Source of the DNA: Thermodesulfovibrionales bacterium
Lineage (GTDB): Bacteria; Nitrospirota; Thermodesulfovibrionia; Thermodesulfovibrionales; SM23-35
Length of the DNA stretch: 64,000 nt
Direction of reading: 5' to 3'
Assembly: GCA_041658585.1 (NCBI GenBank)
Contig: JBAZZX010000008.1
Span: 15,365 to 79,364, forward strand
Notes under the pieces: model-generated
The model's database searches: none
Seen by the model: the letters and a program-made list of their open reading frames with translations, nothing else
What the model was told of the DNA's origin: nothing
Part shown: in pieces, positions 13,287-56,982 of the stretch
Numbering within the stretch: position 1 is the stretch's first letter
Layout of the letters: every line of letters begins with the position of its first letter
Position numbers and translations under genes: made by a program

Positions 13287-15092
13287 TTAAGCTACTGGTA
13301 AGATAAGGAGTATTTTTGTGCCTGTGCCTTCACTGCTTTGGATCTCCATGTCCCAGCCATGCGCCTTTACAAGGTGTTTGACTATAGCCAGTCCGAGACC
13401 GGTCCCCCCGAGATCTCTTGAACGGGCCCTGTCAACCCTGTAAAACCGCTCGCCAAGACGGGATAGGTGTTTCTTCGGAATACCGATGCCGGTATCCTCA
13501 ACGGAAATTTCGATGAAGGATAAGGGATGAGGGATGAGGGACAAATCAGCCGTTTGTTTTGCATTCTGCATTTTGCATTCTGCATTCTGCATTCTTATTG
13601 TTACTCCTCCCTTGTCCGTATACTTTATCCCGTTGTCGACAAGGTTGATTAGTATCTGTATCAGACGGCCTCTGTCCGCGTTTATCCGTATGACTTCGGG
13701 AGATATCTCTTTTTTGAGATAGAGACCCTTGGCGTCGCTCTTGTCTTTCAGGGTTTCAAAAACGGTCTCCGTCACTTCATCGGGATTGACATCCGTCTTT
13801 TCAATCGTTATATCTCCAAGCTCTATCCTTGAGAGGGTGAGAAGATCATTGACAAGGGAGTTCAGGCGTTCGCTGTTGCTTTTAATTGTCTCAAGGAATT
13901 TGAAGGCACTCTCCCTGTCATCGAGGGCGCCTTCAAGGAGCGTTTCCGCAAAACCTTTTATTGCCGTGATGGGGGTCTTTATCTCGTGGGAGACATTTGC
14001 AACGAAATCTTTTCTTACCTCTTCAAGTTTTTTCAGTCTGGTGATATCATGAAACGTCAACACAACGCCGGATAATTCTTCGATGGTTTTATGAGAAGAG
14101 AAGGGTGAAGCGGTGACCATCAGGTGAAGCTCCCTCGGATGGTCGATCTCTATTTCACGGGATATTTTGTGACCGCCTTCGGCAACCATATCTATCAACT
14201 CCATAAGCTCGGCCTTCCGGAATGCCTCCATTAATGTTTTGCCGTCTATGCCCGATGATATGCCGAACAGTTTTGAAACGGCGTCATTACTCAGTATAAT
14301 CCTGCCCTTTGTATCGGTCAGTATCAGGCCGTCCGACATATTTTGGATAATCGCCGCTATCTTCTGTTTTTCATCTTCGCTCTGTTTCAGTTTTGTCTGC
14401 AGTTCATCCGCCATATCGATGATATTTTTGCCGAGCTGACCGAGTTCATCATTGTTTTTCAGAAACAATCTTTTTTTCAAATTCCCTTCCGCCACTTCTT
14501 TTGAAAATTCCGCGATCTCCTCGATAGATTTTGTGACCTTTCTTGTCTGGAAAAGTCCTGTAAGAAGCGCTATGAAAAGTATGGAAAGAGAAGCGATAAT
14601 CACCCTCATCCTGATCTCATTGACAGCCTGTTCAACCTCGTAGAGGGGCATTGACAGCCTCAGGAATCTTTTCGGGTCCGTATCGGTTGATATGGCAAGA
14701 TAAAACTGATTCCTGCTGAGAGTGCTGCTGAACCTTACAGAACTCCCTGTGCCGCTTATATCGGCTTCCTTAATCTCCGGCCTGTTTGCATGGTTCTCCA
14801 TGATATTAGCCGGCTCGTCGGAATCTCCCAAAACTTTTCCTGAATCGTCAATAACCGTTACCCTTGCTCCGGTCCGGTCCTTGAATTGTTTGCTGAAAGC
14901 GTCAAGGTTGTCTGAAAAAGAAAGAGGTATCTGATCCGCAATCAGGCGGGCCTGTATACCGAGGCTTTTCTTGAGGTTTGCAATATAGCTGTCCTTTACT
15001 TCGCGTGAGAGATAAAATTCAAGGGAAAGAAGCAGCAGAGGAGCGATAATAATATAAATCAGCACTATCCTTCTGAAAAGAATATGCTTCAT
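13287..15092 (-). CDS. phoR: phosphate regulon sensor histidine kinase PhoR
   Basis: TM/HAMP/PAS N-terminus, H-box VANVSHEIKTPITAIKGF, and HATPase N/G boxes (LINLVDNGIKYT, DTGIGI, GGTGLGLAIVKH). Overlaps phoB by 1 nt. Confidence 0.9.
   Translation of the reverse strand: MKHILFRRIVLIYIIIAPLLLLSLEFYLSREVKDSYIANLKKSLGIQARLIADQIPLSFSDNLDAFSKQFKDRTGARVTVIDDSGKVLGDSDEPANIMENHANRPEIKEADISGTGSSVRFSSTLSRNQFYLAISTDTDPKRFLRLSMPLYEVEQAVNEIRMRVIIASLSILFIALLTGLFQTRKVTKSIEEIAEFSKEVAEGNLKKRLFLKNNDELGQLGKNIIDMADELQTKLKQSEDEKQKIAAIIQNMSDGLILTDTKGRIILSNDAVSKLFGISSGIDGKTLMEAFRKAELMELIDMVAEGGHKISREIEIDHPRELHLMVTASPFSSHKTIEELSGVVLTFHDITRLKKLEEVRKDFVANVSHEIKTPITAIKGFAETLLEGALDDRESAFKFLETIKSNSERLNSLVNDLLTLSRIELGDITIEKTDVNPDEVTETVFETLKDKSDAKGLYLKKEISPEVIRINADRGRLIQILINLVDNGIKYTDKGGVTIRMQNAECKMQNAKQTADLSLIPHPLSFIEISVEDTGIGIPKKHLSRLGERFYRVDRARSRDLGGTGLGLAIVKHLVKAHGWDMEIQSSEGTGTKILLILPVA
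13512..13595 (-). repeat. 84-nt block of 12 phased heptanucleotides inside phoR, in frame
   Basis: Sense strand: (AGAATGC)x3 AAAATGC AGAATGC, then three non-repeat heptads, then CCTCATC CCTCATC CCTTATC CTTCATC. It encodes RMQNAECKMQNAKQTADLSLIPHPLSFI between the N-box region and the DTGIGI box. Confidence 0.85.
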
Positions 15093-15790
15093 TATTTTCC
15101 GTCGAAGAAGTAACCTATCCCGCGCAGGGTTTTTATATATACCGGTTTCGCCGGATCTTCTTCTATACTTGAACGCAGTCTTCTGATGTGTACGTCGACA
15201 GTCCTCGGCTCAACAAACGCCTCATCACGCCATACGGCATCGAGGAGCTGGTCTCTGCTGAATACCCTGCCTTTTCTTTCGGCAAGAAAAAGGAGCAGTT
15301 TGAACTCTGTTGCGCTCAGTTTGACGGACTTCCCTTTGACTGCAACGGTATATCTTTCCGAGTCTATATCGAGGTCTCCTGTTTTCAATGTCCTGACGGA
15401 TGCGGGTTGCTCTGCGGATCTCCTCAGCACAGCCTTGACACGCGCTATAAGCTCTCTCGGGCTGAAAGGCTTTGTCATATAATCGTCCGCCCCCATCTCA
15501 AGACCGATTATCCTGTCTACTTCCTCTCCCTTTGCAGTAAGCATGATAATCGGCAGCCTTGCAGTCTTTGGATCGTTTCTTATGATGCGGCAGATCTCCA
15601 TCCCCTGAACGCCGGGCAGCATAAGGTCAAGGATAACCAGGTCGTATTTCCCTTTCCTGATTTTTGCGAGCGCATGTTCCCCGTCCGAGGCTGAATCAAC
15701 GGCAAAGCCTTCCTTTTTCAGGTTATATAAGACCAGATCCGCAATATCGGCCTCGTCATCAACAACAAGGACATGCTTTAAGGTATCCAC
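15092..15790 (-). CDS. phoB: OmpR-family response regulator PhoB
   Basis: Receiver domain (VVDDE…DLVILDLMLPG…) plus a winged-helix C-terminal domain. Immediately upstream of phoR and overlapping it. Confidence 0.9.
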   Translation of the reverse strand: MDTLKHVLVVDDEADIADLVLYNLKKEGFAVDSASDGEHALAKIRKGKYDLVILDLMLPGVQGMEICRIIRNDPKTARLPIIMLTAKGEEVDRIIGLEMGADDYMTKPFSPRELIARVKAVLRRSAEQPASVRTLKTGDLDIDSERYTVAVKGKSVKLSATEFKLLLFLAERKGRVFSRDQLLDAVWRDEAFVEPRTVDVHIRRLRSSIEEDPAKPVYIKTLRGIGYFFDGK

Positions 15791-30467: not shown

Positions 30468-31751
30468 ATGTATTTCATATATAGCCTCATATATATTATC
30501 GTAATCATCATTCTTTTGCCTTTTGAATATCTCAAAAGACCGGCGGAGATTAGAAGAAAATGGCTTAGAGATAAGTTCGGTCTTTTAGATGCATCCTTCA
30601 TCCTTAACCCCTCATCCGTTGTTTGGGTCCACGCCGTATCAGTCGGCGAGGTTATGGCCGCATCACCGCTTTTAAAAAAATTAAGAGAACGCTATCCGGG
30701 AAAAAGGATAATCCTTTCCACTATAACCGACACCGGGCAAAAAGTTGCAAGAGAAAGAGCGCCCGAAGGAACAGCCGTTGTTTATCTTCCCTTTGATATC
30801 CCTTTCATATTGAACAATGTTTTGAACAGGGTAAAACCCGACCTGCTGATCGTCATTGAAACCGAACTCTGGCCCAACCTGATAAGGGGTTTCAATGAGA
30901 AAGGAATACCCGTACTGCTGCTCAATGGAAGGATATCCGAAAAATCATTTAAAGGTTATAAAAAGGTATCACGCTTTATGAAAAAAGTCCTTTCCCATGT
31001 AGATTTCTTCGGTATGCAGAGTGAGGAATACGCAGACAGGATCAGGCAATTGGGAGTTGATGCCCGCAGAGTTGTGACATTAGGCAATTTCAAATTTGAT
31101 ACCATACCTCCTTCAGAACTCCCGCTATGGACAAAGGAATTGCAGGGTCCGGTTATTGTTGCAGGCAGCACCTTTGAAGGTGAGGAAGAACTGATGACCG
31201 ATGTTTATCTTAAGCTTAGGGAAGACTTCCCTGATATCAATCTGATCATCGCCCCACGCCATCCCGAGAGGTTTAAACCCGTTGAAGAAATGCTCAAATC
31301 AAAAGGGGTCTCATTTGTAAAACGTTCCGGAATTGATAGCTTAAAGTCGCAGAACGTTGAACGCAGAACGTTGAACGGTTTTATCGTCCTTCTCGACACA
31401 GTCGGCGAACTGTCATCCGTTTACGGCATATCGGACATCGCCGTTATCGGAAAGAGTTTCAGAGGCCGTGGAGGCCAGAATCCCCTCGAACCCGCCTACT
31501 GGGGCAAGCCCATCATATGCGGCCCGCATATGGAGAATTTTCCGATTATCGGGGAGTTTTACAAAGAAGGCGCTGCTATCCGGGTCGGAGAAGAAGACCT
31601 CCTCACAAAATTAAAAGACCTCCTCCTTTCACCCGAAAAGTCAAAAGCAATCGGCTCAAAGGCACGGATGCTATACAATAAAAACGCCGGAGCAGTTGAA
31701 AAGGCGATGGAGATTATTGAAAGGCGAATTTCTAAAACGGATTATTCATAA
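30468..31751 (+). CDS. waaA: 3-deoxy-D-manno-octulosonic acid (Kdo) transferase
   Basis: 427 aa with …VWVHAVSVGEV…, …ETELWPN…, …DTVGEL… and …GGQNPLEPA…, the WaaA/KdtA hallmarks. Confidence 0.9.
   Translation: MYFIYSLIYIIVIIILLPFEYLKRPAEIRRKWLRDKFGLLDASFILNPSSVVWVHAVSVGEVMAASPLLKKLRERYPGKRIILSTITDTGQKVARERAPEGTAVVYLPFDIPFILNNVLNRVKPDLLIVIETELWPNLIRGFNEKGIPVLLLNGRISEKSFKGYKKVSRFMKKVLSHVDFFGMQSEEYADRIRQLGVDARRVVTLGNFKFDTIPPSELPLWTKELQGPVIVAGSTFEGEEELMTDVYLKLREDFPDINLIIAPRHPERFKPVEEMLKSKGVSFVKRSGIDSLKSQNVERRTLNGFIVLLDTVGELSSVYGISDIAVIGKSFRGRGGQNPLEPAYWGKPIICGPHMENFPIIGEFYKEGAAIRVGEEDLLTKLKDLLLSPEKSKAIGSKARMLYNKNAGAVEKAMEIIERRISKTDYS
31349..31376 (+). repeat. tandem GCAGAAC GTTGAAC x2 (four phased heptamers) inside waaA
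   Basis: Perfect 14-nt duplication GCAGAACGTTGAAC GCAGAACGTTGAAC, encoding …SQNVERRTLN… just before the DTVGEL motif. Confidence 0.8.
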
Positions 31752-52501: not shown

Positions 52502-53693
52502 GGCGCTGCTGGTCCTTTCCGACGGCATTGTTTTTGAAGGAAAGAGTTTCGGCGCAAGCGGAGAGACGCTTGGCGAGGTTGTCTTCAACACCTCGATGAC
52601 AGGGTATCAGGAGATACTTACCGATCCTTCATACAGGGGTCAGATCGTTACCATGACCTATCCGCAGATGGGCAACTACGGTGTGAATGAAGAGGATATT
52701 GAATCTCTGAACGGCCCAAAGGTCGAGGGTTTTATTGTAAGGGAATATATCGATTTCCCGAGCAACTGGAGGACTAAAAAGTGCGGAGCGCAAAGCGCCG
52801 GGCGCGGAGTCATACACTCGTTAGGAGATTATTTGAAGGCTTATGGGATAGTCGGCATAGAACATATAGACACTCGCGCATTGACAAGGCATCTGAGAAA
52901 CCACGGCGCCCGGATGGGTATAATTTCTACCGTTGATCCTGATCCTGAAAGCCTTTTGAAAAAGGTGAAAAAACATCCCGGCATATCGGCCTTTGATTTA
53001 GTCAGGGATGTTACGGCGAAAGAGATATATAAATGGCAAGACGGAGTATGGAAGTGGAAACGGGAAGAAAAAGAAGCTGAAAAGGAATCCTCCGCCCTAC
53101 GCCCTACGCCCTCTGCATTTAAACGGGTGGTTGTTTACGACTTCGGAGTCAAATTCAACATCCTCCGTAATCTTGTTGACGCGGGGTTTGACGTTACGGT
53201 TGTGCCTGCGCAGACCCCTGCGGAAGCAGTGCTTGAAATGGACCCTGATGGGGTTATCCTCAGTAACGGCCCGGGAGACCCTGAGACAGTCACTTATGCA
53301 ATCGGGAATGCAAAAAAAATAATTGGCAAAAAGCCCGTCTTCGGGATCTGCCTGGGACATCAGATACTCGGTCTTGCAATGGGCGGCAGGACATATAAAC
53401 TGAAATTCGGCCATCACGGCGGCAACCATCCTGTCAAAGCTTTAGTTACCGGCAGGGTTGAGATAACATCTCAGAACCATAACTACTGCGTTGATATCAA
53501 CAGTCTTCGCGGCCGGGTCAGGCTTACCCATAAAAACCTCTACGACGGGACTGAAGAAGGCATGGAGCATGTGGAATTGCCGGTATTTTCCGTCCAGCAC
53601 CATCCGGAAGCAGGCCCGGGACCGAACGACGCCGCGCATATTTTTAAAAGATTCAGAGATTTGATAGAGGGAGTTTGTGCCGAAAAGAACTGA
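52491..53693 (+). CDS. carA: carbamoyl-phosphate synthase small (glutaminase) subunit
   Basis: …[17 protein letters not shown]…, catalytic GICLGHQ and …QHHPE…. Confidence 0.95.
52784..52811 (+). repeat. four phased heptamers inside carA (CGGAGCG CAAAGCG CCGGGCG CGGAGTC)
   Basis: Encodes …[11 protein letters not shown]… between SNWR and SLGDYLK. E. coli CarA reads SNFRNTEDLSSYLK here, about 10 residues shorter. Confidence 0.7.
53093..53113 (+). repeat. three phased heptamers inside carA (CGCCCTA CGCCCTA CGCCCTC)
   Basis: 21 nt, exactly 7 codons (ALRPTPS), in the inter-domain linker. The linker is about 7 residues longer than in E. coli CarA. Confidence 0.8.
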
Positions 53694-56600
53694 TATTAAA
53701 AAGATACTCCTCATAGGCTCCGGCCCTATCATAATCGGCCAGGCATGTGAGTTCGACTATTCCGGCACGCAGGCCTGCAAGGCTTTAAGGGAAGAGGGAT
53801 ATAAGGTCGTCCTGGTCAATTCCAATCCTGCAACCATTATGACGGACCCTGAGACTGCCGATGTAACATACATCGAGCCGTTAACTGCCGACATCCTTGA
53901 AATGATAATAAAGAAAGAAAGACCGGATGCCATCCTCCCTACAATGGGCGGCCAGACCGCACTGAACCTCGCTGTCGAACTTGCCGAAAAAGGCATACTT
54001 GATAAATATAAGGTTGAACTCATCGGAGCAAAGCTTGACGCTATCAGGAAGGCTGAAGACAGAGAGCTTTTTAAAGAGGCCATGAAAAAGATCGGGCTTG
54101 ATGTCCCGGTATCCGCACATATCGGGTCTATGAAAGACGGGCTTGAAGCGGTCGAATATATAGGTTTCCCGGCTATCCTCAGACCTTCTTTTACCCTGGG
54201 AGGGACCGGAGGCGGCATTGCGTACAACATAGAGGAGTATCAGGTATTGCTTGAGCGGGGGTTAAAGCTCAGTCCCGTCGGGCAGGTGCTGGTGGAAGAG
54301 TCCGCCCTTGGCTGGAAAGAGTATGAGCTTGAGGTCATGCGGGATGTGAAAGATAATGTCGTGATAATATGTTCAATAGAGAACTTTGATCCGATGGGGG
54401 TCCACACCGGCGATTCGATTACTGTTGCGCCCGCACAAACCCTCACCGATAAAGAATACCAGAGGATGCGCGATGCGTCTATCGCGATCATACGCGAGAT
54501 CGGGGTCGATACCGGCGGCTCGAACATCCAGTTCGCCCTGAATCGGGATAACGGCAAAATGATAGTTATAGAGATGAACCCAAGGGTCTCACGAAGCTCG
54601 GCCCTTGCATCAAAAGCGACCGGTTTCCCCATAGCAAAGATCGCGGCAAAGCTTGCAGTAGGGCTGACCCTCGAGGAGATCCCGAATGACATAACAAGAG
54701 AAACCCCTGCGTCCTTTGAACCGACGATAGATTACGTAGTTACAAAGTTTCCCCGGTTTGCCTTTGAAAAATTCCCGGAAGCTGACCCAACCCTTACAAC
54801 TCAGATGAAATCCGTTGGCGAGGTTATGGCAATCGGGAGGACGTTTAAAGAATCCCTGCAAAAGGCGATAAGAAGCCTCGAGATCGGAACACGCGGTTTT
54901 GAAGACGTCCAGGCTGATATGAACGTCATCAAATCTAAACTCAAAACTCCTAACGCTGAAAGAGTCTGGTACATTGCACAGGCAGTGCGGGAGGGAATGA
55001 GCATTCAGGAAATCCATGAGCTCACATGGATCGACCCGTGGTTTCTGGAGAATATAAAACAGATTATAGAAATGGAAGGGCGAATTTCTGCAGAAGCCCC
55101 GAAGCTCGGAAGTTCGGACCCTGAACTGATCTTCCCGCCTTCTCATCTTCATAACTTCTTGCCTTTGCTGAAGGAGGCCAAACAGCTCGGGTTCTCCGAC
55201 AGGAGGATTGCCCAGCTTCTCAATCTGCAAGAAGCCGATATAAGGCATTTAAGAAAGCGGAACAGCATAAAAGCTGTTTACAAGATGGTCGATACCTGTG
55301 CCGCAGAGTTTGCCGCTTACACCCCTTATCTGTATTCGACTTATGAAATACCATTTTACACAATTCATCCTTCATCCCTCACACTTAATCCTTTGGTCGA
55401 GTGTGAAGCCAACCCCTCGGACAGGAAAAAGGTCATTATACTCGGCTCGGGTCCGAACAGGATCGGCCAGGGCATTGAATTCGACTATTGCTGCGTCCAT
55501 GCAGTGTTTGCATTGAAAGAACTCGGTTATGAAACGATTATGGTCAACTGCAATCCCGAGACGGTCAGCACCGACTATGACACTGCCGACAGATTATATT
55601 TTGAACCCTTAACTATAGAAGATGTTTTGAACATTATAGACGCCGAAAAACCGGAAGGAGTTATTGTTCAGTTCGGAGGACAGACTCCGTTGAAACTTGC
55701 AGTGCCTCTTGAAAGGGAAGGTGTTAAAATCCTCGGCACTTCGCCTGATTCTATTGACAGGGCGGAGGACAGGAGACGCTTTAAAGAACTCCTTCATAAA
55801 CTCAACCTGAAACAGGCCGACAGCGATACGGCGATGTCGGTTGACGAGGCTTTATCCGCTGCCGGAAGGATCGGGTATCCTGTTATGGTAAGGCCGTCAT
55901 ATGTGCTCGGCGGCAGAGCGATGGAGATCGTCTATGACGAGAATTCACTCAGTGAATATATGAAGAGGGCCGTCAAGGCATCTCCGGAGCATCCCGTGCT
56001 CGTGGACAAATATCTTGAAGACGCCATAGAAGTAGACGTAGATGCTATCTCGGACGGCAAAGACGTAATCATCGGCGGCGTTATGGAACATATAGAGGAG
56101 GCGGGCATCCACTCGGGCGATTCAGCCTGTTCCCTTCCCCCGCACTCTCTGCCTAAAGAAATCGTCAGAGAGATAAAACGCCAGACAAAGGCCCTTGCCA
56201 GGGAACTAAATGTCATAGGTCTTATGAACGTTCAGTTCGCCGTCAAGAATCAGGACATTTATATCCTTGAAGTCAATCCAAGGGGATCAAGGACAATCCC
56301 CTTTGTCGGAAAGGCAACCGGCGTTCCATTGGCAAAGCTTGCCGCCAAGGTTATAGTCGGCAGGACATTAAAGGAATTAGGGGTTACGAAAGATAAAAAT
56401 ATCAAACATATTGCAGTGAAAGAAGCCGTTTTCCCGTTTGACAGGTTCCACGGAGTCGATTCCATCCTCGGCCCTGAGATGAAATCTACCGGCGAGGTAA
56501 TGGGTATAGACAAGGATTTCGGCATTGCCTTTGGAAAATCCCAGATATCCTGCGGCAACAGGATCCCTTTGGAAGGCAGGATATTTATCAGTCTGAAAGA

Positions 56601-56982
56601 TAAGGACAAGCCTGCTTCCGTTCCGATAGTGAAAAAAATGCTTGAACTCGGCATTTCGGTCATCGCAACCAAAGGAACTGCCAAATATCTGAAAGACCGC
56701 AGTCTTGATGTAGAGGTTGTGAATAAGGTTGCAGAGGGCAGGCCCCACATTGTAGATAAGATCAAGAACAAGGAGATACACTTCGTCATAAACACCGTAA
56801 GCGGCGCGCAGGCACAGAAAGACTCGTTTTCGATAAGACAGAGCGCCCTTCAGTACAGGGTGCCGTTTACGACAACCATATCGGGCGCAACCGCGGCAGT
56901 AAACGCCATAGAGATGCTGAAAAAGAAACGGATGGACATAAAGTCGCTTCAGGAGTATCACGGAATTAAACCGAAAGAATAA
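53677..56982 (+). CDS. carB: carbamoyl-phosphate synthase large subunit
   Basis: 1101 aa with duplicated ATP-grasp halves (…[17 protein letters not shown]… and …[16 protein letters not shown]…) and a C-terminal MGS-like domain. Confidence 0.97.
55348..55398 (+). repeat. 51-nt in-frame insertion in carB with heptamer phasing (ATTCATC CTTCATC CCTCACA CTTAATC…)
   Basis: Here the protein reads [29 protein letters not shown]. coli CarB reads STYEEECEANPS with no insert. The 7-nt period is clearest at 55363-55397. Confidence 0.8.

Follow-up and report, generated by a model that had tools for sequence, protein, structure and literature searches.

A decayed heptanucleotide array in the linker between the two halves of CarB from a Thermodesulfovibrionales bacterium, at a site occupied by variable repeat cassettes across the order

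We analysed a stretch of 64,000 nucleotides (nt) from a Thermodesulfovibrionales bacterium (positions 15,365 to 79,364 of contig JBAZZX010000008.1, assembly GCA_041658585.1; referred to as the window), and in it an in-frame insert in carB, the gene for the large subunit of carbamoyl-phosphate synthetase (CPSase). The insert adds 17 residues at 55348-55398 on the plus strand, flanked by YSTYE and ECEANPS. It is composite, with a 30-nt array of four decayed CTTCATC units nested in an older extension of the linker that is common to the lineage. We consider it probable that the array is repetitive DNA that is tolerated in a permissive inter-domain linker and holds no functional motif. The source genome (2.97 Mb, 99 contigs) is named G000, and other G-numbers stand for genomes of relatives; L- and P-numbers denote CarB sequences of relatives or from metagenomes. 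The features at the insert are as follows.

53677-56982, plus strand: carB, large subunit of CPSase, 1101 amino acids (aa), host of the insert; identified by the open reading frame (ORF), its translation and a phmmer match to E. coli CarB structures over the full length.
55348-55362, plus strand: codons for IPFYT, an old lineage-wide linker extension (xPF[YF]x) that is not heptamer-derived; xPF[YF] follows YSTYE in the order-level relatives and in 120 metagenomic CarBs.
55364-55393, plus strand: 30-nt heptamer module TTCATCC TTCATCC CTCACAC TTAATCC TT, four decayed CTTCATC units, translated as (I)HPSSLTLNP(L); identified by Tandem Repeats Finder (TRF) and pattern match.
55394-55398, plus strand: right border TGGTC (end of L, then V), from the alignment of junction DNA; its counterpart in L031 and L032 is TCGTG, directly ahead of the ECEANPS codons.

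A phmmer search against all PDB chains aligned the CarB of the window over its whole length with that of E. coli (1bxr, 1jdb and others; E = 0). Compared to E. coli it has two additional segments, one of ~11 residues at query aa ~477-494, within the oligomerisation domain, and the insert at the junction, where the E. coli sequence has a gap of 16 residues between E548 and E549. An earlier note, made from the letters of the window alone, had claimed a true insertion into a conserved protein relative to E. coli. This view is supported by the alignment, and it also holds in comparison to several Nitrospirota families and to the second CarB paralogue of G000. The junction of this paralogue (53% identity; contig C72:1155-4343) is YFSTYHAPDQVPSSARRKIMVIGGGP, which is short and E. 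coli-like and has neither insert nor repeat cassette; a paralogue of this type is also present in several relatives. In E. coli CarB the oligomerisation domain comprises residues 401-552 and the carbamoyl-phosphate synthetic unit residues 553-933 (PMC6245113). The insert is located 4-5 residues ahead of this domain boundary, in the connector of the two homologous halves. Inteins possess a splicing domain that spans ~130 residues or more and has conserved blocks at its ends, and the insert has no such domain; its size of 17 residues, its hypervariable sequence and length and the continuous frame rule out an intein, an intron and recoding.

The codons of the insert are ATA CCA TTT TAC ACA ATT CAT CCT TCA TCC CTC ACA CTT AAT CCT TTG GTC, and the DNA is as quoted in the earlier note, which had assigned all 17 residues to the heptamer family. 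This assignment is correct for the module, which accounts for 30 of the 51 nt and 10 of the 17 codons. The remaining ~7 residues (xPFYx...xV), i.e., the first five codons (IPFYT) and the last two (LV), belong to the older linker extension of the lineage. The 28 nt ATTCATC CTTCATC CCTCACA CTTAATC differ from (CYTCATC)4 by 4 mismatches, and TRF assigned to 55364-55393 a period of 7 with 4.3 copies, 69% matches and a score of 32, which is weak if taken alone. The sister species represented by L002 has a more regular module (ATTCATC CCTCATC CCTCACC CTTCATC). The units are arranged head to tail, as in a coding heptanucleotide microsatellite.

A search for (CYTCATC)4 with up to 4 mismatches on both strands gave 25 loci in G000, and five order-3 Markov genomes of equal size contained no match. 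This demonstrates that the heptamer phasing of the insert is not due to chance, and a chance resemblance to heptamers was ruled out by this comparison. Arrays of at least three copies in G000 have a period of 7 in 97 cases and of 8 in 45, with lower numbers for the triplet-compatible periods (46 for period 6 and 25 for period 9), and CTTCATC/GATGAAG is the most frequent unit family. About 20 of the 25 loci lie within same-strand stop-free frames of at least 100 codons. The coding strand is CTTCATC in every array that is located in an ORF, because three or more of these heptamers are read in all three frames, while GATGAAG repeats hold a TGA in one of them. The arrays have a stereotyped form, [AT]TTCATCC (TTCATCC)n TT(T). 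Of 26 loci, about 15 have four units, two have about seven, and the others have two or three. Perfect arrays of G000 are located at C5:6381-6412, C7:35846-35873, C21:42996-43026 and C34:11275-11304. A length of n x 7 + 2 is divisible by three at n = 1, 4 and 7, and the carB module is the 30-nt, four-unit form. Four units are also preferred outside ORFs of G000 (e.g., C15:11336 and C21:25305), and selection for the reading frame alone is thus no explanation for this preference.

The family shows a patchy distribution. Allowing up to 2 mismatches, (CTTCATC)3 gave 25 matches in G000, 22 in G004, 19 in G001, 25 in G012, 26 in G015 and 10 in G011, but none in the congeners G002, G003 and G005. It had no match in 11 of 12 other families and a single one in the remaining family. 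A control pattern gave no match in genomes that are rich in the real pattern.

Heptanucleotide families are known as STRR of Calothrix and Nostoc, GGGAATC of Xanthomonas and GGGGA(T/C)T of Nostoc (Rehm et al. 2015, PMC4692102), and a general excess of heptameric simple sequence repeats in bacteria is credited to Mrazek et al. 2007 in the same article. The CTTCATC family resembles the STRR-type and GGGAATC families in having one 7-nt unit at many loci, a bias for four units, occasional inverted pairs and a lineage-specific distribution. Like STRR its units are dispersed, but they are not mainly intergenic. The Xanthomonas and Nostoc families are enriched between genes and depleted in ORFs, and their four-unit bias was ascribed to G-quadruplexes (PMC4692102), an explanation that does not obviously apply to CTTCATC. 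In contrast to STRR-type families, most loci of the CTTCATC family are translated in long open frames, with a unit that is C/T-rich on the coding strand, and the genomes studied here additionally harbour 8-nt units and complementary two-arm arrays. Our search of the literature for heptamer or octamer arrays in Thermodesulfovibrionales found no paper.

A translated heptanucleotide repeat is the poly-psi motif of neuO, an AAGACTC variable number tandem repeat in the coding region of an E. coli K1 prophage O-acetyltransferase (PMC3046976). As in carB, a 7-nt unit is read in three frames as a 7-residue repeat, and the frame is kept only if copies are gained or lost in multiples of three. However, the neuO repeat is perfect and long and slips actively; as a contingency locus at the 5′ end of an accessory gene, it switches expression on and off. 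The carB module is short and decayed, has a single length within the species and lies inside a housekeeping enzyme. Tandem repeats of Borg elements create disordered protein regions (PMC9879509), and the likeness is that fast-evolving tandem repeats add new, probably unstructured protein segments. The unit length described here is not a multiple of three, so that only 3-unit steps are viable. The in-ORF repeat units of Borg elements, in contrast, are reportedly divisible by three.

The junction is a site for cassettes in the whole order. We compared CarBs from 30 genomes of the same order, representing 13 families, and recovered 24 insert-bearing orthologues. Every orthologue has extra residues at the junction, with the conserved xPF[YF] first, followed by 3 to ~80 hypervariable residues and then ECEANPS; the junction inserts of the order differ in length and comprise ~10 to 80 residues. 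The top 120 database matches to aa 530-600 were all Nitrospirota/Thermodesulfovibrionales CarBs, with the same layout in 119 of 119 readable junctions, and xPF[YF] is conserved in all ~150 Thermodesulfovibrionales-type CarBs examined, ahead of each variable cassette. Some members of the order (L014, L016, L018, L019) have short, non-repetitive linkers. Elsewhere in the phylum, xPF[YF] with a variable stretch occurs in two more Nitrospirota families (f18 and part of f21), and the E. coli-like YSTYE-x-ECEANPS in families f14 (same class), f16, f19, f20, f22, f24 and part of f21. The 17 residues themselves are confined to a species/genus cluster (L002, L003, P0002-P0006, P0122-P0134) and were not found in unrelated lineages, where their presence would have refuted the claim of the earlier note. 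The junction is not the place of an insertion peculiar to this genome but an order-wide cassette hotspot with fast turnover: the site is filled throughout the order and the module is common to species with 90-97% identical CarB, which rules out a private recent insertion.

The insert DNA of the relatives consists of tandem arrays of 7- or 8-nt units, in which a purine-rich block typically precedes a pyrimidine-rich one, or else of G/C palindromes. Examples of such junction cassettes are:

L006: (GGGGTCAA)4 ... (AATCCTCG)4
L008: (CAGGATA)4 ... (TCATGCA)2 (TCGTGAA)2
L012: (AGTTAAAG)4 ... (CAACTCYY)n
L011 and L024: (TGTCAAAG)n ... (ACTCTGAY)n
L004, L028 and many P-numbers: G/C palindromes CCCCCC-TTnnnAA-GGGGGG, translated as PPLxKGG
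L031 (a metagenomic relative): AAGGATG AAGGAGG AAGTATG AATGAGG AAAG-AAAAAAT opposite ATTCATC CTTCATC CCTCATC CTTCATC CTTTCGTG, then GAATGT

The carB module of the window is homologous to the right arm of L031, and the right end of L031 corresponds to CTTAATC CTTTGGTC GAGTGT in the window. The purine arm of L031 contains AGGAGG and, 4-5 nt further on, an in-frame ATG directly upstream of the C-terminal half of CarB, a potential internal start. In Aquifex and Methanocaldococcus, carB is split into two genes at this junction.

The cassette type in carB tracks whichever repeat family abounds in the respective genome. CarB genes with the HPSSL module are found in G000, G004 and G001, all of which are CTTCATC-rich, and the carB of G015 holds the purine version of the CTTCATC unit. 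G002, G003 and G005, which have no (CTTCATC)3 matches, carry other cassettes. The palindrome occurs in 191 copies in G011, 139 in G017 and 6 in G000; palindromes make up the carB insert of G017, and the carB of G011 has a large junction insert.

The blocks of a cassette are largely complementary, and in RNA folding nine cassettes of relatives each formed one long arm-to-arm hairpin. Their z-scores were −5.2, −5.8, −1.4, −1.1, −2.4, −2.5, −1.7, −2.5 and −2.5, so that six of nine were below −2, compared to 6% of 80-nt segments along the carB of the window (mean −0.36, sd 1.14). For the copy in the window, which has the pyrimidine arm only, no significant fold was obtained (z = −1.66). Its only local structure is an 8-bp stem (UCACACUU/GAGUGUGA) that is not conserved in L002, and we rejected an mRNA hairpin for this copy. 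Having one arm, it also lacks the inverted repeat of an element of the type of Rickettsia palindromic elements (RPEs) or of a miniature inverted-repeat transposable element. RPEs are elements of 100-150 bp with a defined sequence, and Ogata and colleagues reportedly found them in 2000 inserted in frame in protein genes. The carB cassettes of the relatives behave similarly, as hairpin-forming repetitive DNA that persists in essential ORFs as an extra surface peptide. They differ from RPEs in that their arms are tandem arrays of 7-8 nt, their size is 30-250 nt and they are rapidly swapped at one site; the window copy, moreover, is not palindromic.

Comparison of close pairs revealed how cassettes change. 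The flanks of L031 and L032 are identical, and the difference between the two is exactly CTTCATC CCTCATC CTTCATC (21 nt, 7 residues, three units). Over 1.5 kb of carB, L033 and L034 share 96% identity, with a (GTGAAAA)-type cassette in one and an unrelated (AAGGRTTC)-type cassette in the other, between TTCTATA and AGAAAAAAGG (a control for the GTGAAAA pattern is uninformative, since reversing this pattern merely rotates the repeat). L036 and L013 (90%) have a palindrome versus 8-mer arrays, and between L035 and L004 (96%) the difference is a 39-nt array beside a palindrome. Among pairs with at least 95% identical flanks, the insert length differs in 31 of 118. On the cassette tree, which was calculated by FastTree without the insert columns, has many open forks and shows the cited sister pairs starred, HPSSL required 8 changes for 27 rows, PLxKGG 9 for 16 and RVQG 11 for 20.

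Arrays at other loci of G000 were compared to the congeners G004 (~95% DNA identity) and G001 (~80%). The sites are mostly shared, and orthologous arrays of the three genomes show indels of 42, 18 and 6 nt. At C3:8959 three units changed in concert from CTTCATC to CCTCATC, and on C34 a perfect four-unit array is retained with flanks down to 78% identity. About 2 kb past the end of the window, at C8:81524-81540, a block of six CTTCATC-family units (42 nt) distinguishes G000 from G004 (C25:9700; ~93% identity), which is a recent gain or loss compatible with the frame.

Two further carB sequences of relatives are interrupted. In G012 (L029; G012:C9:734000-734460) the frame is broken in the 8-mer arrays of the junction and in heptamers of the oligomerisation domain, and also at two non-repeat places, so that inactivation by slippage is indistinguishable from long-read indel or assembly errors. 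The second carB copy of G001 (C11:182924-186185) contains many stop codons, being a pseudogene or an assembly problem, and retains the junction module CTTCATC CCTCAGC CTTCATC.

Within the species of the window, 11 full-length alleles from different samples all encode 1101 aa, and their modules differ by point changes only; L002 and L003 have the same module length. Of the 17 insert positions 6 are variable, versus 5.2% elsewhere in CarB (Fisher p = 2e-4, calculated on alleles that are not independent), a difference of about 7-fold. No change in the number of whole units was found at the module of the window among the 11 alleles, L002 and L003. Such changes are present at L031/L032 and at other arrays of G004 and G001. 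The earlier note had suggested looking for sister genomes that lack the insert or have a different copy number; none was found for this very module, and a copy-number change is seen in the three-unit step at the homologous module of L031/L032.

These data are consistent with a model in which lineage-specific families of G/C palindromes and of short tandem arrays, with units of 7 or 8 nt and in many cases two complementary arms, would colonise the genomes of the family. In an essential gene the survivors would only be those copies that are in frame, free of stops and located in a permissive loop, and such filtering would lead to the repeated collection of cassettes by the same two CarB loops. 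Extra residues are apparently tolerated near the domain boundary. The first layer of the insert is an ancient extension of the linker between the halves, xPFYx...xV, common to all Thermodesulfovibrionales examined. The second layer is the nested four-unit CTTCATC array, which is read on the sole strand that is free of stops in every frame and now decays by point mutation. Turnover follows three routes: gain or loss by slipped strands with three units (21 nt) per step, other in-frame indels, and replacement of whole cassettes between the fixed borders TTYTAYA ... GARTGYGA, probably by recombination. We infer that the linker is structurally permissive and the peptide a passenger, with selection for the frame and against stops as the filter for survivors. 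Most probably, the peptide itself serves no specific function.

Some observations weigh against this interpretation. The AlphaFold model of CarB is poor (mean pLDDT (predicted local distance difference test) 66.9, pTM (predicted template modelling score) 0.48); region 533-580 is below 50, as are several clearly folded regions, and since low confidence is not specific to the insert, an exposed coil or loop at this place is not demonstrable from the model. Close relatives did not provide an empty site for the 30-nt module, and its arrival in carB is thus deduced rather than observed. Finally, plain slippage leaves unexplained why one unit recurs at ~25 loci and why four units are preferred, also outside ORFs.

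Due to this unexplained origin at many loci and the bias for four units, we keep one serious rival, although we regard it as rather unlikely. The cassettes may be small mobile fold-back elements with complementary 7/8-nt arms or G/C palindromes, inserted by a hairpin-recognising transposase of the HUH/RAYT type, and the module in the window the surviving pyrimidine arm. This would account for the recurrence of one unit in four-unit arrays whose ends are stereotyped ([AT]TTCATCC ... CATCCTTT), both inside and outside ORFs, and for the presence of 19-25 matches in G000, G001 and G004 versus none in three congeners. It is also in line with the arm-to-arm folding of the relatives' cassettes (z down to −5.8), with (AAGGATG)5 opposite (CATCCTT)4 in L031 and with the genome-wide occurrence of the palindrome in up to 191 copies. 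However, neither target-site duplications nor terminal inverted repeats are apparent in the listed flanks of family loci, no filled/empty pair with sharp borders was obtained and no linked transposase was shown. Slippage by three units and concerted unit changes are the behaviour of a microsatellite, and the window copy has one arm and no significant fold. A more far-reaching form of this idea, put forward tentatively, is that family f1 of the Thermodesulfovibrionales harbours undescribed self-propagating fold-back cassettes that invade lineage by lineage, use the CarB linker as a recurrent landing pad and are swapped by hairpin-directed transposition or templated switching; the module in the window might then be a half-decayed copy.

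A role of the junction cassette in the mRNA appears improbable to us. A hairpin or a purine arm similar to a Shine-Dalgarno (SD) sequence could pause ribosomes to allow folding of the N-terminal half, or perhaps allow internal initiation of the C-terminal half, and both the location exactly between the duplicated halves and the AGGAGG with following ATG in L031 would fit to this, as would a hairpin tendency far above the carB background in the relatives' cassettes. The copy in the window has, however, neither a second arm nor a significant structure, the four short linkers of order members are non-repetitive, and sequence, length and fold strength vary freely, with the same arrays being present in other loops and other genes. 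Still less credible, and in our view very unlikely, is that the HPSSLxLHP peptide is a selected protein feature such as a flexible tether or a motif for interaction with the oligomerisation domain: HPSSL-type inserts at no fewer than 8 places on the CarB tree and the perfect array on C34 speak for it, but the peptide is no more than what (CTTCATC)n encodes when read through its three frames, and it is found in unrelated proteins, the insert is far more variable than the rest of CarB in the species, near-identical CarBs have chemically unrelated cassettes, and the peptide is absent from many Nitrospirota, from E. coli and from the paralogue.

If the tolerance of repetitive DNA is indeed the explanation, the insert of the window alone would be a harmless relic, and more can be learned from its setting. 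A single defined linker of an enzyme present in all organisms acts as a natural assay for insertion tolerance across an order and records the repeat family that is active in each genome. The setting also shows that non-triplet repeats of 7 or 8 nt can persist in essential genes by three-unit steps and by swaps of whole cassettes, which bears on the question how heptamer families of the same unit spread through bacterial genomes. In annotation, such inserts and frameshifts therein may readily be mistaken for errors. For the engineering of CPSase, a permissive site between the two halves is indicated.

Three further arrays are located in the window.

55093-55170 (~aa 473-498), plus strand: second cassette of carB, in the oligomerisation domain, with degenerate 8-nt arrays in two complementary arms (TRF period 8 at 55093-55118).
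13512-13539, minus strand: array CCTCATC/CTTCATC x4 (coding strand) of the same family in a phoR-like gene.
30596-30616, plus strand: 3-unit array CTTCATC CTTAACC CCTCATC of the same family in a 427-aa ORF (30468-31751); corresponds to C8:45960-45980.

The second cassette of carB reads GAAGCCCC GAAGCTCG GAAGTTCG ... CTTCCCGC CTTCTCAT CTTCATAA CTTCTTGC, which can be summarised as (GAAGNNCG)3 ... (CTTCNNNN)4, and adds 11 residues compared to E. coli. Within the species, aa 475-494 are the most variable stretch of CarB and the sole one that exceeds the junction insert. In relatives this site is hypervariable as well, with (GACACGGA)4 + (CACCGCGT)4 in L012 and (CTCAAAG)4 + (AAATCCG)4 in L028. The array in the phoR-like gene is the second phoR block, and the earlier note was right to place the carB repeat in its unit family.

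Outside the window, the 8-mer AAGGATTC is abundant in G000, G012, G014 and G017. It forms dense clusters at C2:200-9400 and C7:85500-89660 of G000, where some arrays occur every 53 nt. With 24 matches in G000 and none in five congeners, including G004 with its 97% identical CarB, this points to a recent gain or to a location on a mobile region. Likewise outside the window, C15:11250-11800 of G000 holds two neighbouring prepilin-like genes, both of which begin within a (CATCCTT)4 array, so that the repeat encodes the leader peptide. About 40 nt upstream of each gene there is a complementary (AAGGATG)n array rich in SD-like and ATG motifs, which could form a 5′ hairpin that sequesters the start region.

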